From a virus (lineage: Duplodnaviria; Heunggongvirae; Uroviricota; Caudoviricetes), in IMG/VR virus record IMGVR_UViG_2654587792_000025: a DNA stretch of 14,932 bases. One strand, 5' to 3'. Position numbers and translations under genes: made by a program. Within the stretch, counting starts at the first letter, position 1. Each line of letters opens with the position of its first letter. Below are positions 11,651 through 14,932 of the stretch, one piece after another. The notes under the pieces are model-generated. The model did no database searches. It was not told the origin of the DNA and saw only the letters and a program-made list of their open reading frames with translations.

Positions 11651-12424
11651 TTATTGATTCATAGATCGTTTACTCAGAATGTTCACTATATGAGTACAAG
11701 CACCTGGGGTGAGATTGATTTTATTAGTCCCCCACTCTTCACGTCTTCGCATCTGGCCTCCGTCAGACTTACCGATATCCCACGGAATAAAACCACTTAC
11801 GCCACAGGCATCCTCACCCAATTCCTCTATAAAATTTTCGTTCTTCGTATCGTAAATTTCGACCAGTCCATGTTTGCGCATACTCACAGCCCAAAGAGTT
11901 GCGCCTTTTATCGTCTGTAACGTATCGCAAACCAAGTACTGATACTTATCTACGAGATAAAGGTAAGCAAAACTTGCGATGCCTAATCCCATATAATCAG
12001 CATGAGTAAAAACCCCTCTAATCTGCTTGGCGCTGACTTTTACTCCAGATTTATCCTTGATTGGAAACTCGCAGTAGGCCACGCGGAAGACTGTTTGGAC
12101 TGGCTGCCCCACATGCAACTTGTAGGATTCAATTTCTGCTCCTATCTCAAGAGGTGTGTAACCAGCACGTTTGAGTCGCTTAACTTCCTGCTCTTGGTAA
12201 TCAGGATCACATGACTCAAGACACTCGCCAACAATACAGCGTTCATAGGCCGAATCAACAAGCTCGTATTCGGTAAATCGAATTAGATCGAAACCTCGGG
12301 AGATAAAATAGAACTCACCGAGAGCGATAATTCTCGTCGCTCTCGGCATTTCAGACAAGACCTTGCTGTAGTCTTCTATTTCAGGGATTAATCTGTTCGC
12401 CTGACCAATTAGAGATGGTGCCAT
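11651..12424 (-). CDS. Hypothetical protein, second gene of a two-gene operon
   Basis: 257-aa ORF overlapping the upstream 139-aa ORF by 16 nt. No motif recognised. Confidence 0.55.
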   Translation of the reverse strand: MAPSLIGQANRLIPEIEDYSKVLSEMPRATRIIALGEFYFISRGFDLIRFTEYELVDSAYERCIVGECLESCDPDYQEQEVKRLKRAGYTPLEIGAEIESYKLHVGQPVQTVFRVAYCEFPIKDKSGVKVSAKQIRGVFTHADYMGLGIASFAYLYLVDKYQYLVCDTLQTIKGATLWAVSMRKHGLVEIYDTKNENFIEELGEDACGVSGFIPWDIGKSDGGQMRRREEWGTNKINLTPGACTHIVNILSKRSMNQ

Positions 12425-12828
12425 GAAGTATTCTGTGCCGTTGATGGTTCCATATCATCGATTTTACAGAATTTCTTCATAAAAGACTCTACAACTTGTT
12501 TGATTCGTGAAGAAATATCACGATCTAAACACTTCAAGTCAGGATATTGTTCAGCAACATCTAAAACAAAAGAGGTTCGTTTACCGTTAGCGACAACCTC
12601 GGCCAACGGTTTAACCAGTGACGTAGAATTAGAGACCTTTTCGGCACGCGCCACATCGCTCTTAAAAGTGACGATGAAGTGCTGGCGGTTAGCTGATTCA
12701 CGGCACAACATACGTCGCACTTCTACTGCGTCTTCACTGTTGTGAAAACGCATAGGAAATCTGTCGATAACCGCAGTATTGGTGCGGATCGTCTGCATAG
12801 AACGCGTATTGTCATGATAATTTAGCAT
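12409..12828 (-). CDS. Hypothetical protein, first gene of a two-gene operon
   Basis: 139-aa ORF. No motif recognised. Confidence 0.5.
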   Translation of the reverse strand: MLNYHDNTRSMQTIRTNTAVIDRFPMRFHNSEDAVEVRRMLCRESANRQHFIVTFKSDVARAEKVSNSTSLVKPLAEVVANGKRTSFVLDVAEQYPDLKCLDRDISSRIKQVVESFMKKFCKIDDMEPSTAQNTSWHHL

Positions 12829-13037: not shown

Positions 13038-13283
13038 TCATCGACTCAGCTCAGGTGCCCCCCACTCACACAGCCTTTCACCTATCGTATTGTGGATAAG
13101 CAACTGTCGCTCCGTTTCCTCAGTCATAAAATCCTCTCTACTCACATAGATAGGATTTGCAGCATCGCAGAATAGCACGCCTGGAGCCTGCGTCTTAATC
13201 ACGCACCCATTTATCAAACAGCTCGCGATGAACACCAGAGGCATCTTTTTGCCGCACTTCATTAACCGTTTCATTTTTGACAT
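13038..13283 (-). CDS. Rz1-like outer-membrane spanin lipoprotein (o-spanin)
   Basis: +1-frame ORF overlapping the 3' part of the Rz-like gene. Internal Met followed by a basic n-region, a hydrophobic h-region and lipobox IAS-C. The exact start (13283, 13274 or 13262) is uncertain. Confidence 0.5.
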   Translation of the reverse strand: MSKMKRLMKCGKKMPLVFIASCLINGCVIKTQAPGVLFCDAANPIYVSREDFMTEETERQLLIHNTIGERLCEWGAPELSR

Positions 13284-13446
13284 CCACTGTGCTTTGAAGT
13301 CGTTTTCTGTCTTCCTGTTTTGCCTTCTCTTCCATTGCTCGTCGCGCCGCATTTCCGCCCATCGTGTAAGCGCCGACCAGAACGAAAAGAACGGCAGCCA
13401 GCGTAATCAAAGCAACTTTTAGCTTTGTCATCAGGCTGCCTAGCAT
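13195..13446 (-). CDS. Rz-like inner-membrane spanin (i-spanin)
   Basis: 83-aa ORF with an N-terminal transmembrane helix (LKVALITLAAVLFVLVGAY) followed by a charged, helix-prone periplasmic region. It lies directly after the hydrolase candidate and contains the overlapping Rz1-like frame. Confidence 0.6.
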   Translation of the reverse strand: MLGSLMTKLKVALITLAAVLFVLVGAYTMGGNAARRAMEEKAKQEDRKRLQSTVDVKNETVNEVRQKDASGVHRELFDKWVRD

Positions 13447-13447
13447 A

Positions 13448-14167
13448 TTAGACCATCCCTTTCTGGTGTCTTCTTACCTGCGACCAGGCGATAAATCCAG
13501 CCACAACAATAGTGGCAATACCGAAGATGATGCGTACTGTATCCCCGCTAGAGATATGACCTTGTGCTTTATCCATAGCAGCGGAAACCTGCGGCATAAC
13601 ATCGGCCAGCTGCGCCAGACCAATACCTGCTGTAACAGTTGCGCCTGCTGTTTCTTTAGTTACAGGAACAGCCTTCACGGTTTTCACCGGCTTAACGACG
13701 CCAGCTCGACGCAGACCTTCCTCAATAACTTCTGCCGCATACCAGGTGTTCAGCGTTTTTAGCGGACCTCGCCCATTCTCATGGCGAATGATTGCCTCAA
13801 CCAAAGGTCGAAGAATGTCGTAATCATGCAGATCGATAATCATGTCTGCGGTTACACCAACGGCTTTAGACACCTCATTAATGTAGGCGTCAGTGTTGTT
13901 TTCATTCGGCGGTGCCCAACGTTCAATAACTTCACGAATGGTATCGATACTTGAGCCGTCTTTTGCGCGACGCTTGTCGTGGTAGGTAATTAGAGTCACC
14001 GCCAGTGCACGAATCCCCCAAACAGGGTCTTTAAACGTGCAAAAGCGCGGTTCGTCTGGATTCGCAACCAGACCTTGCCACGGTGATCCTTTATCAAGAT
14101 TACCGGGGTTATTATTACGAATGCCTCTCGGAGTCTTCATCCTTGATCTCCTGTTATTGCAGTCCAT
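13448..14167 (-). CDS. Peptidoglycan hydrolase (endolysin) candidate with a C-terminal hydrophobic segment
   Basis: 239-aa ORF placed between the holin-like gene and the spanin pair. The N-terminal motif GIRNNNPGNL is one I associate with phage lytic enzymes but cannot confirm without a search. The C-terminal helix is IIFGIATIVVAGFIAW. Confidence 0.4.
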   Translation of the reverse strand: MDCNNRRSRMKTPRGIRNNNPGNLDKGSPWQGLVANPDEPRFCTFKDPVWGIRALAVTLITYHDKRRAKDGSSIDTIREVIERWAPPNENNTDAYINEVSKAVGVTADMIIDLHDYDILRPLVEAIIRHENGRGPLKTLNTWYAAEVIEEGLRRAGVVKPVKTVKAVPVTKETAGATVTAGIGLAQLADVMPQVSAAMDKAQGHISSGDTVRIIFGIATIVVAGFIAWSQVRRHQKGMV

Positions 14168-14489
14168 TTTTTACGCCATACGCGGCTAACCCCAAAAGCA
14201 GTGCGGTAATAATGAACGACGTTATTTTAGAAACAATGCCGCCAAAGAACCCACTTGAGATGGAATCTAACCGGTTAAGGAGTTTGTCCAGGTTGGAGTG
14301 TTGAATACTATGTTGCGCCGGGGTCATATCACCAAAGTAGGTTTTCAGCTGATCGTTGACCTCCTGGCCAATTTCTTCACGTAGCTCTTTACCTAATTTG
14401 CCAACAACCTCCCGAGCAACGATCGCGGCAATACGCTCAACTTGCTCTGTTGTAACGCCCGCCATCTCGTTCGACATGTTTTCCTCCAT
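14154..14489 (-). CDS. Lysis-associated membrane protein (holin or holin-like regulator candidate)
   Basis: 111-aa ORF with a hydrophilic N-terminal ~75 aa and a single C-terminal transmembrane helix (ITSFIITALLLGLAAYGV). It overlaps the start of the hydrolase candidate by 14 nt. Confidence 0.35.
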   Translation of the reverse strand: MEENMSNEMAGVTTEQVERIAAIVAREVVGKLGKELREEIGQEVNDQLKTYFGDMTPAQHSIQHSNLDKLLNRLDSISSGFFGGIVSKITSFIITALLLGLAAYGVKNGLQ

Positions 14490-14548
14490 GAAAAGTCAAA
14501 TCGGGATGGCGGATTTATATCACATTTCACCCTTTTGTTATAGGTGTG

Positions 14549-14560
14549 TACTTACCTATC
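14549..14560 (-). promoter_or_regulatory. Recurrent motif GATAGGTAAGTA (coding-strand orientation) upstream of the holin-like gene
   Basis: Plus strand reads tacttacctatc, identical to 4777-4788, and is embedded in the inverted repeat ataggt...acctat. Confidence 0.4.
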
Positions 14561-14792
14561 ATTCAGCATTGCAACGGACTGATGAGAAAGCACCTACTCC
14601 TACCCATCGCCAGTTATAGATGCTACCCGCTTTGTATAAGGTATAGTCGTTCACTTTTTTAACAGCATATATGGGTATGACTGTCTCCTGTCCACCAATG
14701 ATAGCTTCACCATAACATATAGGTGTCGGCAATTTCTGGCAGCCAGTAAGAGAGAGAACAACAGCTATTGTTAGAAATAATCTTTTCATCAT
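14559..14792 (-). CDS. Small lipoprotein (77 aa), possible superinfection-exclusion-type lipoprotein
   Basis: Signal peptide MMKRLFLTIAVVLSLTG followed by lipobox Cys (LTG-C), then a short mature domain with three further Cys. The function is only an analogy to small phage lipoproteins. Confidence 0.55.
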   Translation of the reverse strand: MMKRLFLTIAVVLSLTGCQKLPTPICYGEAIIGGQETVIPIYAVKKVNDYTLYKAGSIYNWRWVGVGAFSSVRCNAE

Positions 14793-14932
14793 TTACTCAT
14801 CAGTTATACAGATTTCTATTTATTACCGGTACTGGATTTGCCCCTATATTTCCAGACATCTGTTATCACTTAACCCATTACAAGCCTGCTGCCGCAGATA
14901 TTCCCGTGGCGAGCGATAACCCAGCGCACTAT

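Follow-up and report, generated by a model that had tools for sequence, protein, structure and literature searches.

A tail-anchored membrane protein family and a C-terminally anchored endolysin in the lysis cassette of an SSU5-like phage-plasmid of Escherichia coli

Layout of the cassette and its host element

The window, the whole stretch of 14,932 nucleotides that was analysed, carries four lysis genes on the minus strand at the positions given by the first-pass annotation; all features described below lie on this strand. These genes comprise a 107-aa tail-anchored membrane protein of family phrog_5093 in the holin slot (14154..14477), a 230-aa Enc34/M4Lys-type endolysin (13448..14140), an 83-aa Rz-like i-spanin (13195..13446), and a 78-aa Rz1-like o-spanin lipoprotein precursor (13038..13274). 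The canonical order reported earlier, holin slot, endolysin, Rz, and overlapping Rz1, was borne out and also occurs in the records of phages Cyrano and SSU5.

The longest open reading frames are 14489..14154 (111 aa) for the holin slot, 14167..13448 (239 aa) for the endolysin, and 13352..13038 for the o-spanin. The true starts of the first two are likely internal Met codons with strong Shine-Dalgarno sequences: GGAGG is found 5 nt upstream of the ATG at 14477, and AGGAG 7 nt upstream of the ATG at 14140, which places the endolysin start 13 nt downstream of the 107-aa gene. The Rz1 start is most likely near 13274. The annotated products of Cyrano and SSU5 equal the 107-aa protein and the 230-aa endolysin in length, and the product of 107-aa length is labelled "Holin" and "putative holin", respectively. 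A dual-start holin/antiholin motif, MEENM, was considered and rejected due to the absence of a Shine-Dalgarno sequence at the upstream ATG (14489) and, in a Providencia relative, a stop codon between the upstream ATG and the real start. Likewise, a Tat signal in the 9-codon N-terminal extension of the endolysin was rejected: NRRSRM is not followed by a hydrophobic region, and judging from the Shine-Dalgarno sequence, translation starts downstream of the extension.

About 37 nt upstream of the start codon, the extended -10-like element TGTGATATAAA (14514..14524) is a possible promoter of the cassette. It is the sole exact match within the window, and its core, TG-n-TATAAA, is kept in the window, Cyrano, SSU5, and the Providencia and Xenorhabdus relatives. 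A scan for sigma-70 promoters and terminators returned none on the coding strand.

The two spanin genes have the features of a two-component spanin pair of overlapped architecture. The i-spanin matches the Rz-like spanin family phrog_1026 (5.7e-25) and has an N-terminal TM helix, with its hydrophobic stretch at residues 1-34 by Kyte-Doolittle hydropathy. The o-spanin, which matches phrog_1275 (Rz-like spanin; 1.4e-25), has a predicted signal peptide, MKRLMKCGKKMPLVFIAS, followed by the predicted lipidated Cys in the lipobox FIAS|C. Its gene starts inside Rz, shares 80 nt with the end of that gene, and extends beyond it. The SSU5 o-spanin has been placed in the Chi/Enc34 o-spanin family (PMC6139136).

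Judged from nucleotide similarity, the window belongs to an SSU5-like phage-plasmid of E. coli, and the cassette comprises its lysis genes. Plasmids of about 110 kb from E. coli match the window at 98-99% identity, whereas the identity of the cassette to phages Cyrano and SSU5 ranges from 83 to 94%. The cassette was found on plasmids in 238 of 5,426 complete E. coli genomes (4.4%), where RefSeq labels all of its genes "hypothetical" or "membrane protein". Some of these SSU5-like plasmids carry CTX-M-15 (PMC5427194). A gene for a Cor-like exclusion lipoprotein adjoins the 107-aa gene.

The endolysin and its C-terminal membrane domain

By homology, the endolysin is classified as an Enc34/M4Lys-type glycosidase, a published enzyme type and not a new one. 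The 239-aa ORF had been proposed as a peptidoglycan hydrolase, and domain searches recovered such a fold. Residues 10-160 match the Enc34 endolysin's catalytic domain (PDB 7q47) with an E-value of 1.5e-54, the protein matches the endolysin family phrog_873 (9.2e-89), and its identity to M4Lys of BSPM4 is 54.7% across 99% of the length, the C-terminal membrane domain (CTD) included. The catalytic domain, of the PHA02564 glycosidase type, lies at 13691..14140. The AF2 model has a pLDDT of 80-97 over most of this domain, and its best Foldseek match is again 7q47 (TM-score, TMt, 0.81; 58% identity). The predicted catalytic signature comprises W75 (13916-13918), Y86 (13883-13885), and E121 (13778-13780), all three invariant in 51 homologues; their counterparts in Enc34 are Trp79, Tyr95, and Glu131 (PMC8943055). 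No other holin or endolysin was seen in the window, and none is annotated within the first 100 kb of the relative SSU5, whose genome is 103 kb long.

The first-pass annotation had described a single C-terminal helix in the endolysin. A strong C-terminal helix does exist, but it is part of a conserved two-helix domain of about 75 aa. With Kyte-Doolittle hydropathy in a 19-residue window, the hydrophobic windows of the 239-aa ORF start at 205-214, reach a maximum of 2.07, and correspond to IIFGIATIVVAGFIAW, the helix seen earlier and here termed TM2 (13484..13531). The CTD is ordered as a basic linker, a weakly hydrophobic helix H1 (TAGATVTAGIGLAQLADVMPQV; 13586..13651), a loop with an S-S-G motif, the strongly hydrophobic TM2, and a basic tail. 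H1 and TM2 have mean Kyte-Doolittle values of 0.99 and 2.40, respectively, over 105 homologues, and TM2 has zero charged residues. H1 is rich in Gly, Ala, Ser, and Thr (53%), a SAR-like composition, and its residues G174, Q177, and P183 are invariant. The net charge is +2.1 in the linker, -1 in H1, -0.5 in the loop, and on average +2.4 in the tail after TM2, a pattern that fits a hairpin under the positive-inside rule. The AF2 model of the CTD has low confidence (pLDDT 40-70) and therefore gives nothing firm on the hairpin. The hydrophobicity of H1 is only marginal, and one of its acidic residues is conserved; in M4Lys, several predictors did not call this segment a TM helix, and the authors predicted an N-out topology (PMC7143992).

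The CTD is kept in each of the 105 distinct full-length homologues that were examined. Together with the charge pattern, this conservation indicates that it is more than an anchor. Used alone as a query, the CTD retrieved the endolysins of Siskin, Chi, BSPM4, and iEPS5 at about 53-55% identity. It was matched in 168 phage records; the matches listed from them were endolysin-type or unnamed features, and no free-standing CTD gene was evident among them. The endolysin N-terminus, MKTPRGIRNNNPGN, is hydrophilic, the hydrophobic stretches are C-terminal only, and hydropathy found no N-terminal, weakly hydrophobic signal-anchor of the kind that defines SAR endolysins.

C-terminal anchoring had been considered unusual for an endolysin. 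This view was not upheld, as the protein belongs to the published Siskin/M4Lys/Enc34 type. Endolysins with a C-terminal TM segment were reported for Siskin in 2019 (PMC6498227), M4Lys in 2020 (PMC7143992), and Enc34 in 2022 (PMC8943055), and AP1 LysAP, also from 2022, is a GH24 analogue with a C-terminal TM domain (PMC8879335). The window endolysin shares with Enc34 ORF39, M4Lys, and Siskin whole-length homology, the catalytic signature, the two-helix CTD with its S-S-G loop, the basic tail, the cassette position, and the overlapped spanin arrangement. However, the host element is a phage-plasmid of about 110 kb instead of a chi-like siphovirus of about 59 kb, and the upstream partner, an N-terminal-TM protein of about 112 aa in chi-like phages, is here a protein unrelated to it whose TM helix is C-terminal. 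According to the Enc34 paper, only Chivirus and some relatives have the architecture (PMC8943055). At full length, M4Lys lyses E. coli even with azide present and no holin; once its TMD is deleted it no longer causes lysis, and the TMD on its own is bacteriostatic (PMC7143992). Enc34 ORF39 is toxic as the full-length protein, but its truncated version is soluble and shows muralytic activity (PMC8943055).

The tail-anchored family and the cassettes of its relatives

The 107-aa protein matches phrog_5093 with 8.2e-69, a family annotated as function unknown. Pfam and NCBIfam searches with this protein gave no match, and neither did the curated holin families of Pfam, NCBIfam, and PHROG ("holin"). 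The earlier holin call stands as far as it describes a small membrane protein adjoining the endolysin; the functional label was a positional guess without a holin-family match. The hydrophilic N-terminus and single C-terminal TM helix attributed to the protein were supported by hydropathy, with hydrophobic windows starting at 79-92 of the 111-aa ORF (maximum 2.02; Kyte-Doolittle, 19-residue), and are conserved in the family.

An exhaustive HMMER search collected 62 relatives. The alignment comprises 39 members at 20-56% identity, and all 39 match phrog_5093. Family members are tail-anchored proteins of about 94-143 aa; in each of the 39, the 18-residue window of highest hydrophobicity begins at 69-84% of the length, and only 1-19 residues are left after the hydrophobic segment. 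In the window, this segment (FFGGIVSKITSFIITALLLGLAAYGV; 14172..14249) is followed by the five residues KNGLQ. As the helices of both the 107-aa protein and the endolysin are conserved in their families, they are not chance hydrophobic runs. Upstream of the segment lies the juxtamembrane motif YFGDMTPAQHSIQHSNLDKLLNRLDS (14262..14339), predicted to be cytoplasmic, in which G49, H56, and H60 are invariant, giving a family-wide G-x6-H-x3-H, and D71 is near-invariant. The N-terminal domain of this inner-membrane protein, about 75 aa long, is acidic and helical and probably lies in the cytoplasm; the net charge of the whole protein is -4. The AF2 model has four helices at low confidence (pLDDT 49.7). 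A highly charged, hydrophilic C-terminal tail is a criterion for holins. Such a tail is absent here, since KNGLQ has one charge and the charged domain is N-terminal.

Both the 107-aa protein and the CTD have "ISSG" just before the TM helix and D-[VM]-[MT]-P upstream. Homology between the two was rejected (hhalign P 0.034, probability 1.5%), the likeness being attributable to chance or TM bias.

The phrog_5093 proteins constitute an undescribed family that heads many phage lysis cassettes, and no experiment on any of them was found in the literature. The IMG/VR scans for relatives were swamped by SSU5-like contigs, and a metagenome scan for distant members resulted in a single locus. In the loci read, the phrog_5093 gene heads the lysis cassette with five endolysin types and is followed either immediately by the endolysin or by a small membrane protein and the endolysin. 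The Enc34-type endolysin with CTD is present in the window and in L004, L006, L172, L175, L176, L179, L180, and L259; in L176, the endolysin lies about 1.1 kb downstream of the phrog_5093 gene. Five loci (L182, L185, L254, L257, and L260) carry a Peptidase_M15_3 endolysin, and two (L261 and L262) an endolysin that is M15-like by sequence motif. The remaining types are Amidase_2 (L258), SLT (L255/256), and phrog_669 (L091, L171, and, likely by sequence, L263). The stop codon of the phrog_5093 gene and the start codon of the endolysin often overlap, for example, in L254, L258, and L260, and the upstream neighbours vary, including tail fibre genes, a radical SAM enzyme, and others.

The cassettes of about a dozen lineages, read with simple hydropathy calls, showed a complementary pattern. 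When the endolysin lacks the CTD, nearly all complete cassettes read also encode a separate small protein containing two or three hydrophobic segments, which in L255 is a Pfam Holin_2-3 protein; the L182 sequence ends before such a protein could be seen. In the phrog_5093 cassettes with a CTD endolysin, no separate two- or three-segment protein was found, and no hidden small ORF was detected in the window. The presence of a separate holin-like protein in relatives without the CTD suggests that the 107-aa protein may be a co-holin or a regulator. The CTD endolysin also occurs with Phage_holin_3_3 in L007 and with an N-terminal-TM protein in chi-like phages; thus, the CTD does not generally replace a holin. 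In profile comparisons by hhalign, neither the CTD nor the 107-aa family could be related to the small proteins with two or three segments (P 0.02-0.4), and no relationship was detected between the 107-aa family and the chi-type holin (P 0.07).

Possible routes of the endolysin to the wall

By analogy with XhlA of PBSX and gp24.1 of SPP1, we infer that the 107-aa protein acts as a holin or co-holin, possibly partnering the CTD. Taken as a whole, the best explanation joins a CTD hairpin on which the enzyme is parked, lesions made by the 107-aa holin or co-holin, and the spanins; we hold it tentatively, at slightly under an even chance. The endolysin would be synthesised in the cytoplasm and parked by the CTD on the inner membrane as an N-in/C-in hairpin, with the basic linker and the basic tail remaining cytoplasmic. 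At a programmed time, membrane components would open lesions through which the tethered catalytic domain could reach the murein. The lesions would be made by the 107-aa protein as a holin, or as a co-holin with a holin-like CTD, for which the cooperation of XhlA or gp24.1 with a two-TM holin in PBSX and SPP1 may serve as the template. The spanins would then disrupt the outer membrane. The earlier suggestion that endolysin release may be regulated in a non-canonical way is still reasonable.

Both gp24.1 of SPP1 and XhlA of PBSX carry one TM helix, at the C-terminus, and act only with a two-TM holin (PMC6316719). Like the 107-aa protein, they are small products of lysis-cassette genes, hydrophilic in the N-terminal part and ending in a lone TM helix, and the SPP1 order gp24.1, endolysin, gp26 is matched by the M15 and Amidase_2 relatives (PMC6316719). 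However, their hosts are Gram-positive, none of the 39 family members matches Pfam XhlA at E <= 0.01, and the two-TM partner, present with the M15, Amidase_2, SLT, and phrog_669 relatives, is absent from the window.

In another explanation, unlikely but worth weighing, the catalytic domain is already exported in an N-out/C-in topology and kept inactive by TM2 on the periplasmic side of the membrane, as in a SAR endolysin with its anchor at the C-terminus, until the 107-aa protein, as a self-sufficient small-hole holin, depolarises the membrane and so releases and activates the enzyme. SAR endolysins and pinholins (P1 Lyz; R21 and S21 68 of phage 21) offer the likeness of a membrane-tethered endolysin and a weak, Gly/Ala-rich helix, and the two-TM pinholin layout of weak helix, short loop, strong helix, and basic tail resembles the CTD. 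The basic C-terminal tail (+2.4) would fit C-in, and the 107-aa protein occupies the slot held by a bona fide holin family in L007. This model has been published for LysAP and HolAP of AP1 (PMC8879335) and raised by the Enc34 authors (PMC8943055), and M4Lys, predicted N-out, lyses cells alone (PMC7143992). The AP1 pair likewise combines a single-TMD protein, the larger, charged portion of which is predicted to lie in the cytoplasm, with an endolysin that needs its C-terminal TMD for lysis (PMC8879335). LysAP differs in having a GH24 lysozyme domain and not the Enc34 fold, the TMD of HolAP is near the N-terminus, and no spanins were found in AP1, unlike the window. The anchor of SAR endolysins is N-terminal and is their Sec export signal, a role that the C-terminal anchor cannot serve; the window endolysin has no N-terminal signal, and its linker before H1 is basic (+2.1), which argues against export. 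Additionally, most relatives with phrog_5093 also carry a separate holin-like protein, at variance with a self-sufficient 107-aa holin.

That the 107-aa protein forms no hole and is a tethered timing factor, antiholin- or releasin-like, while the CTD itself achieves the membrane passage, seems distinctly unlikely to us. M4Lys needs no partner, and co-expression of its upstream chi-type protein slightly delayed lysis (PMC7143992), although, according to the Enc34 authors, holin-independent M4Lys lysis may be an over-expression artefact (PMC8943055). A parallel is the releasin gp25 of Mu, a membrane-tethered anionic cytoplasmic domain with two His, a single TMD, and virtually no periplasmic part, whose family is found with several classes of endolysin (PMC9239132). 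For the 107-aa protein, the net charge is -4 and two His are invariant, and phrog_5093 proteins occur with separate holin-like proteins in relatives. The polarity, however, is opposite, the TMD of gp25 being N-terminal (N-out, C-in); the gp25 gene lies downstream of the endolysin, and releasin acts on N-terminal SAR domains. Neither the 107-aa protein nor the 39 family members matched DUF2730, and no other match was obtained. Soluble M15 and Amidase_2 endolysins are also accompanied by phrog_5093 proteins, and these would leave nothing to release from the membrane.

A function outside lysis, such as that of a moron linked to tail fibres or to exclusion that happens to sit where tail and lysis genes adjoin, could be read from the adjoining Cor-like exclusion lipoprotein, the tail-fibre genes upstream in relatives, and the absence of functional annotation in all libraries searched, but is very improbable, since the phrog_5093 gene stays by the endolysin, or by a small membrane protein plus endolysin, across five endolysin types, often with overlapping coding regions, while its upstream neighbours vary.

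A broader proposal, which we regard as doubtful, is that phrog_5093 represents a widespread, previously undescribed class of tail-anchored lysis proteins in phages of Gram-negative bacteria, whose partner in the SSU5-like elements is the CTD in place of a separate holin, the endolysin being a natural holin-endolysin fusion. The family would then stand as a mirror image to both the Mu releasin and "class IV" holins, with a function analogous to that of XhlA and gp24.1. If this were true, the cassette would encode a two-component holin, one of whose subunits is joined to the enzyme.

How a C-terminally anchored endolysin gains access to the wall is an acknowledged open question (PMC8943055, PMC7143992). 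If phrog_5093 proved to be an ordinary holin family, the outcome would be better annotation only. The SSU5-like phage-plasmids provide a second setting for the question of access to the wall, common and genetically tractable, with a different upstream partner. The association of phrog_5093 with five endolysin types makes it a concrete candidate for a new family of holins, co-holins, or lysis regulators.

Organization and setting of the lysis cassette

The first-pass annotation described four genes, with a single C-terminal membrane helix in each of the first two products. Hydropathy analysis bore out the helices (one hydrophobic stretch apiece, C-terminal both times), and apart from two start codons, which were revised, the description holds. 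The gene in the holin slot was placed at 14477..14154 (longest ORF 14489..14154); 107 aa is its most likely product length because a strong GGAGG precedes the second Met. The same length is annotated in the related phages Cyrano and SSU5. The endolysin gene has AGGAG ahead of Met10 and spans 14140..13448, encoding 230 aa (longest ORF 14167..13448). The Rz protein (13446..13195, 83 aa) harbors an N-terminal transmembrane (TM) helix and matches phrog_1026, and Rz1, whose gene starts inside Rz and ends beyond it, matches phrog_1275; the lipobox FIAS|C closes its signal peptide. All four products are encoded on the minus strand.

E. coli plasmids of ~110 kb match the window at 98-99% identity over about 14 kb; for the cassette region, identity to phages Cyrano, PhiR41_1, CMS-2020a, and SSU5 is 83-94%. 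Because of these identities, the window is classified as an SSU5-like phage-plasmid. Its remaining genes encode a DNA ligase, a primase, a DnaB-like helicase, and proteins of unknown function, and two ORFs equal Cyrano's annotated ParA and RelE/ParE in length. The cassette was found in 238 of 5,426 complete E. coli genomes, plasmid-borne every time. RefSeq labels its genes in these plasmids as 'hypothetical protein' or 'membrane protein', and they are annotated as holin, endolysin, Rz, and Rz1 in the records of SSU5 and Cyrano.

Directly upstream of the cassette, as in SSU5, lies the gene of a 77-aa lipoprotein (14559-14792, minus strand; signal LSLTG|C) matching phrog_1119, the Cor superinfection exclusion protein (2.3e-30). 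Between them, an extended -10-like element, TGTGATATAAA (14514-14524, minus strand), precedes the start codon of the 107-aa gene by about 37 nt. Cyrano, SSU5, and the Providencia and Xenorhabdus relatives all retain the core TG-n-TATAAA. Lacking a -35 element, the sequence escaped the sigma-70 scan; it may represent an activator-dependent late promoter. An IS2 right end (the 3' end of the OrfB/InsD transposase gene plus the terminal inverted repeat) was observed at 14832-14932, in minus-strand reading, abutting the cassette with ~40 nt between it and the cor-like gene. The match to related plasmids breaks off at 14833, where SSU5 has membrane-protein and tail-fibre genes. Unless the cassette is transcribed from a promoter of its own, the insertion could be polar on late transcription of the cor and lysis genes. 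Immediately after the spanins, two minus-strand ORFs without assigned function (11651-12828) encode 257 aa (phrog_3307) and 139 aa (phrog_2594). The corresponding position holds a KacT-type toxin-antitoxin pair in Cyrano and two similarly sized hypothetical proteins in SSU5, so the region looks like a variable cargo slot. Far from its lysis cassette, SSU5 encodes a 'lysozyme inhibitor LprI family protein' (NC_018843.1 86898-87596; L010:36898-37596).

The endolysin and its C-terminal membrane domain

The hydrolase candidate, taken as 239 aa in the first-pass annotation, was confirmed by domain search, which returned phrog_873 'endolysin' (9.2e-89) and PDB 7q47, the solved catalytic domain of the phage Enc34 endolysin (1.5e-54). 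An AF2 model built from 51 homologues was confident across the catalytic domain and superposed on 7q47 with a TM-score of 0.81. The catalytic signature reported for Enc34, Trp79, Tyr95, and Glu131 (PMC8943055), corresponds to W75, Y86, and E121 here and is invariant across the family. Additionally, M4Lys of Salmonella phage BSPM4 aligned over 99% of the length, C-terminal region included, at 54.7% identity. Judged by sequence, the endolysin is thus a new member of a known, published type. The Enc34 paper describes this architecture as restricted to Chivirus and some relatives (PMC8943055), whereas the window endolysin sits in a phage-plasmid. The architecture was found here in phage-plasmids and in >100 protein clusters (55-100% identity) from Enterobacteriaceae, Xenorhabdus, Photorhabdus, Providencia, Pasteurella, and Alcaligenaceae. 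Several hundred further records have the catalytic domain without the C-terminal membrane domain (CTD), many within virion-associated proteins.

The layout of the CTD was derived from 105 distinct homologues. A basic linker (mean net charge +2.1) leads into helix H1, which is weakly hydrophobic (mean Kyte-Doolittle 0.99; 53% Gly/Ala/Ser/Thr) and carries invariant Gly, Gln, and Pro as well as one conserved acidic residue. Next come a loop in which S-S-G is nearly invariant, the strongly hydrophobic TM2 (mean Kyte-Doolittle 2.40), and a basic tail (mean net charge +2.4). The CTD is not a simple helix. The positive, slightly negative, positive charge pattern is consistent with an N-in/C-in hairpin under the positive-inside rule, which would keep the catalytic domain cytoplasmic, although H1 is marginal as a TM segment. 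No free-standing CTD copy was evident among the matches listed from 168 phage records, which were endolysin-type or unnamed features.

The phrog_5093 family and its cassettes

The 107-aa protein matched phrog_5093 (function unknown) and no Pfam or NCBIfam family. A k-mer-limited search recovered close relatives only, and an exhaustive HMMER profile search of 1.84 billion representatives yielded 62 proteins at E <= 0.001, about 45 of them 94-143 aa long and matching over most of their length. All 39 aligned members match phrog_5093 and no Pfam family. They share a helical, alanine-rich, charged N-terminal part, the motif (Y/H)FG-x6-H-x3-H-x-R-h-x-(K/R)-h-L-x3-D with invariant Gly and two His, and one C-terminal TM helix followed by a 1-19-residue tail. 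Since there is no signal sequence and the N-terminal domain is acidic, the protein is expected to be tail-anchored with its N-terminus inside. Among open-access papers and preprints, no publication was found on this family or on tail-anchored holins in Gram-negative phages.

I-S-S-G occurs just ahead of the TM helix in both the 107-aa protein (14262-14339) and the CTD (13532-13585), both on the minus strand, with D-[VM]-[MT]-P 20-25 residues before it. Homology was rejected, as profile comparison was not significant (P 0.034) and chance is the default; a shared interaction surface is conceivable.

In the loci read, the phrog_5093 gene comes first in the lysis cassette, and tail-fibre genes often immediately precede it. 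The endolysin gene follows either directly or after a small membrane protein gene; overlap of start and stop codons with the next gene is frequent. Five endolysin types follow the phrog_5093 gene. The Enc34 type with CTD occurs in the window, the Providencia (L004) and Xenorhabdus (L006) phage-plasmids, L172, L175, L176 (endolysin ~1.1 kb downstream), L179, L180, and the distant metagenomic relative L259. Peptidase_M15_3 occurs in L182, L185, L254, L257, and L260, with L261 and L262 M15-like by sequence motif. Amidase_2 occurs in L258, SLT in L255/256 behind a Pfam Holin_2-3 protein, and phrog_669 in L091, L171, and probably, by sequence, L263, behind a three-segment protein. In two further loci, L183 and L184, small membrane proteins follow the gene but no recognised endolysin does. 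Where the endolysin has no CTD, nearly all complete cassettes also encode a further, separate small protein containing two or three hydrophobic segments; cassettes with a CTD endolysin have none, and no hidden small ORF was found in the window.

Several neighbor genes were also recorded. In L004:3231-4225 and L006:3237-4545, two or three extra genes, absent from the window, separate the endolysin from the i-spanin-like gene; their products (103-108 aa and 220-227 aa) resemble one another at the N-terminus and in a '...YYGV' C-terminus. The gene just before phrog_5093 encodes a radical SAM protein in one group of distant relatives (L091:2143-3438; L171:70-267), and in several lineages (L183, L258, L260) a metallophosphoesterase gene (phrog_20266 in L091) and a PhoH-like gene lie farther downstream, after the cassette. 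These neighbors suggest that the relatives are distant members of a single large phage lineage whose contigs reach about 96-114 kb.

Models of lysis and the role of the 107-aa protein

C-terminally anchored endolysins have precedents. In 2019, the Siskin genome note predicted two C-terminal TM domains (N-in/C-in) for the endolysin and an N-terminal TM domain for the holin, assigning each protein to a proposed new class (PMC6498227). M4Lys (2020) degrades peptidoglycan through its catalytic domain; the full-length protein by itself lyses E. coli without being blocked by azide, deletion of the TM domain abolishes lysis, and the TM domain by itself is bacteriostatic (PMC7143992). The Enc34 endolysin (2022) is toxic when full-length and soluble and active when truncated (PMC8943055).

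Drawing on the observed gene identities, conservation of both membrane modules, and context pattern, and with topology, interaction, and hole formation presumed, our best model is tentative, at somewhat under an even chance. The endolysin would accumulate on the cytoplasmic face of the inner membrane, held by its CTD. The 107-aa protein would then act as holin, or as co-holin with a holin-like CTD, making a lesion that gives the catalytic domain access to murein, and the spanins would complete lysis. Gene order offers parallels: SPP1 gp24.1, gp25, and gp26 share the M15/Amidase_2-type order 'C-terminal-TM protein, endolysin, two-segment protein', and PBSX xhlA, xhlB, and xlyA share the order 'C-terminal-TM protein, holin, endolysin'. 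In both systems, neither the C-terminal-TM protein nor the two-TM holin does harm by itself, but the pair is lethal (PMC6316719). The likeness to XhlA is analogy, not membership, because the 107-aa family has no sequence match to it. Against the co-holin role of the CTD, however, CTD endolysins are also paired with a chi-type N-terminal-TM protein and, in L007, with a Phage_holin_3_3 protein, and the CTD has no detectable homology to the small holin-like proteins. In the metagenomic prophage-like loci L007/L008:1411-3447, the CTD-bearing Enc34-type endolysin of L007 is preceded by the Phage_holin_3_3 protein and a LysC-like lipoprotein, and that of L008 by the holin protein and a different 139-aa protein. 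A CTD endolysin therefore also pairs with a conventional holin family.

An exported enzyme released by a pinholin is rather unlikely here. The Enc34 authors raised a SAR-like tether plus pinholin and asked for further work (PMC8943055), and a 'C-terminal SAR endolysin plus pinholin' model was advanced for AP1 LysAP, a GH24 lysozyme with a C-terminal TM domain (PMC8879335); the predicted hairpin would instead hold the catalytic domain inside. We consider it unlikely that the 107-aa protein is a regulator or releasin-like factor. The Mu gp25 releasin also has an anionic cytoplasmic domain, two His, and a single TMD, and its family is found with several endolysin classes (PMC9239132), but its anchor is N-terminal and the 107-aa family has no DUF2730 match. 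That the 107-aa gene is not a lysis gene is very improbable: its family stays linked to the endolysin gene while the endolysin changes among five unrelated types, which is good evidence, by guilt of association, for a lysis function.

Beyond the known endolysin type, the new results are modest but real: the partner protein represents an undescribed family in which a His motif is conserved, this family is linked to five types of endolysin, and around phrog_5093 CTD cassettes and separate holin-like proteins are distributed in a complementary way.
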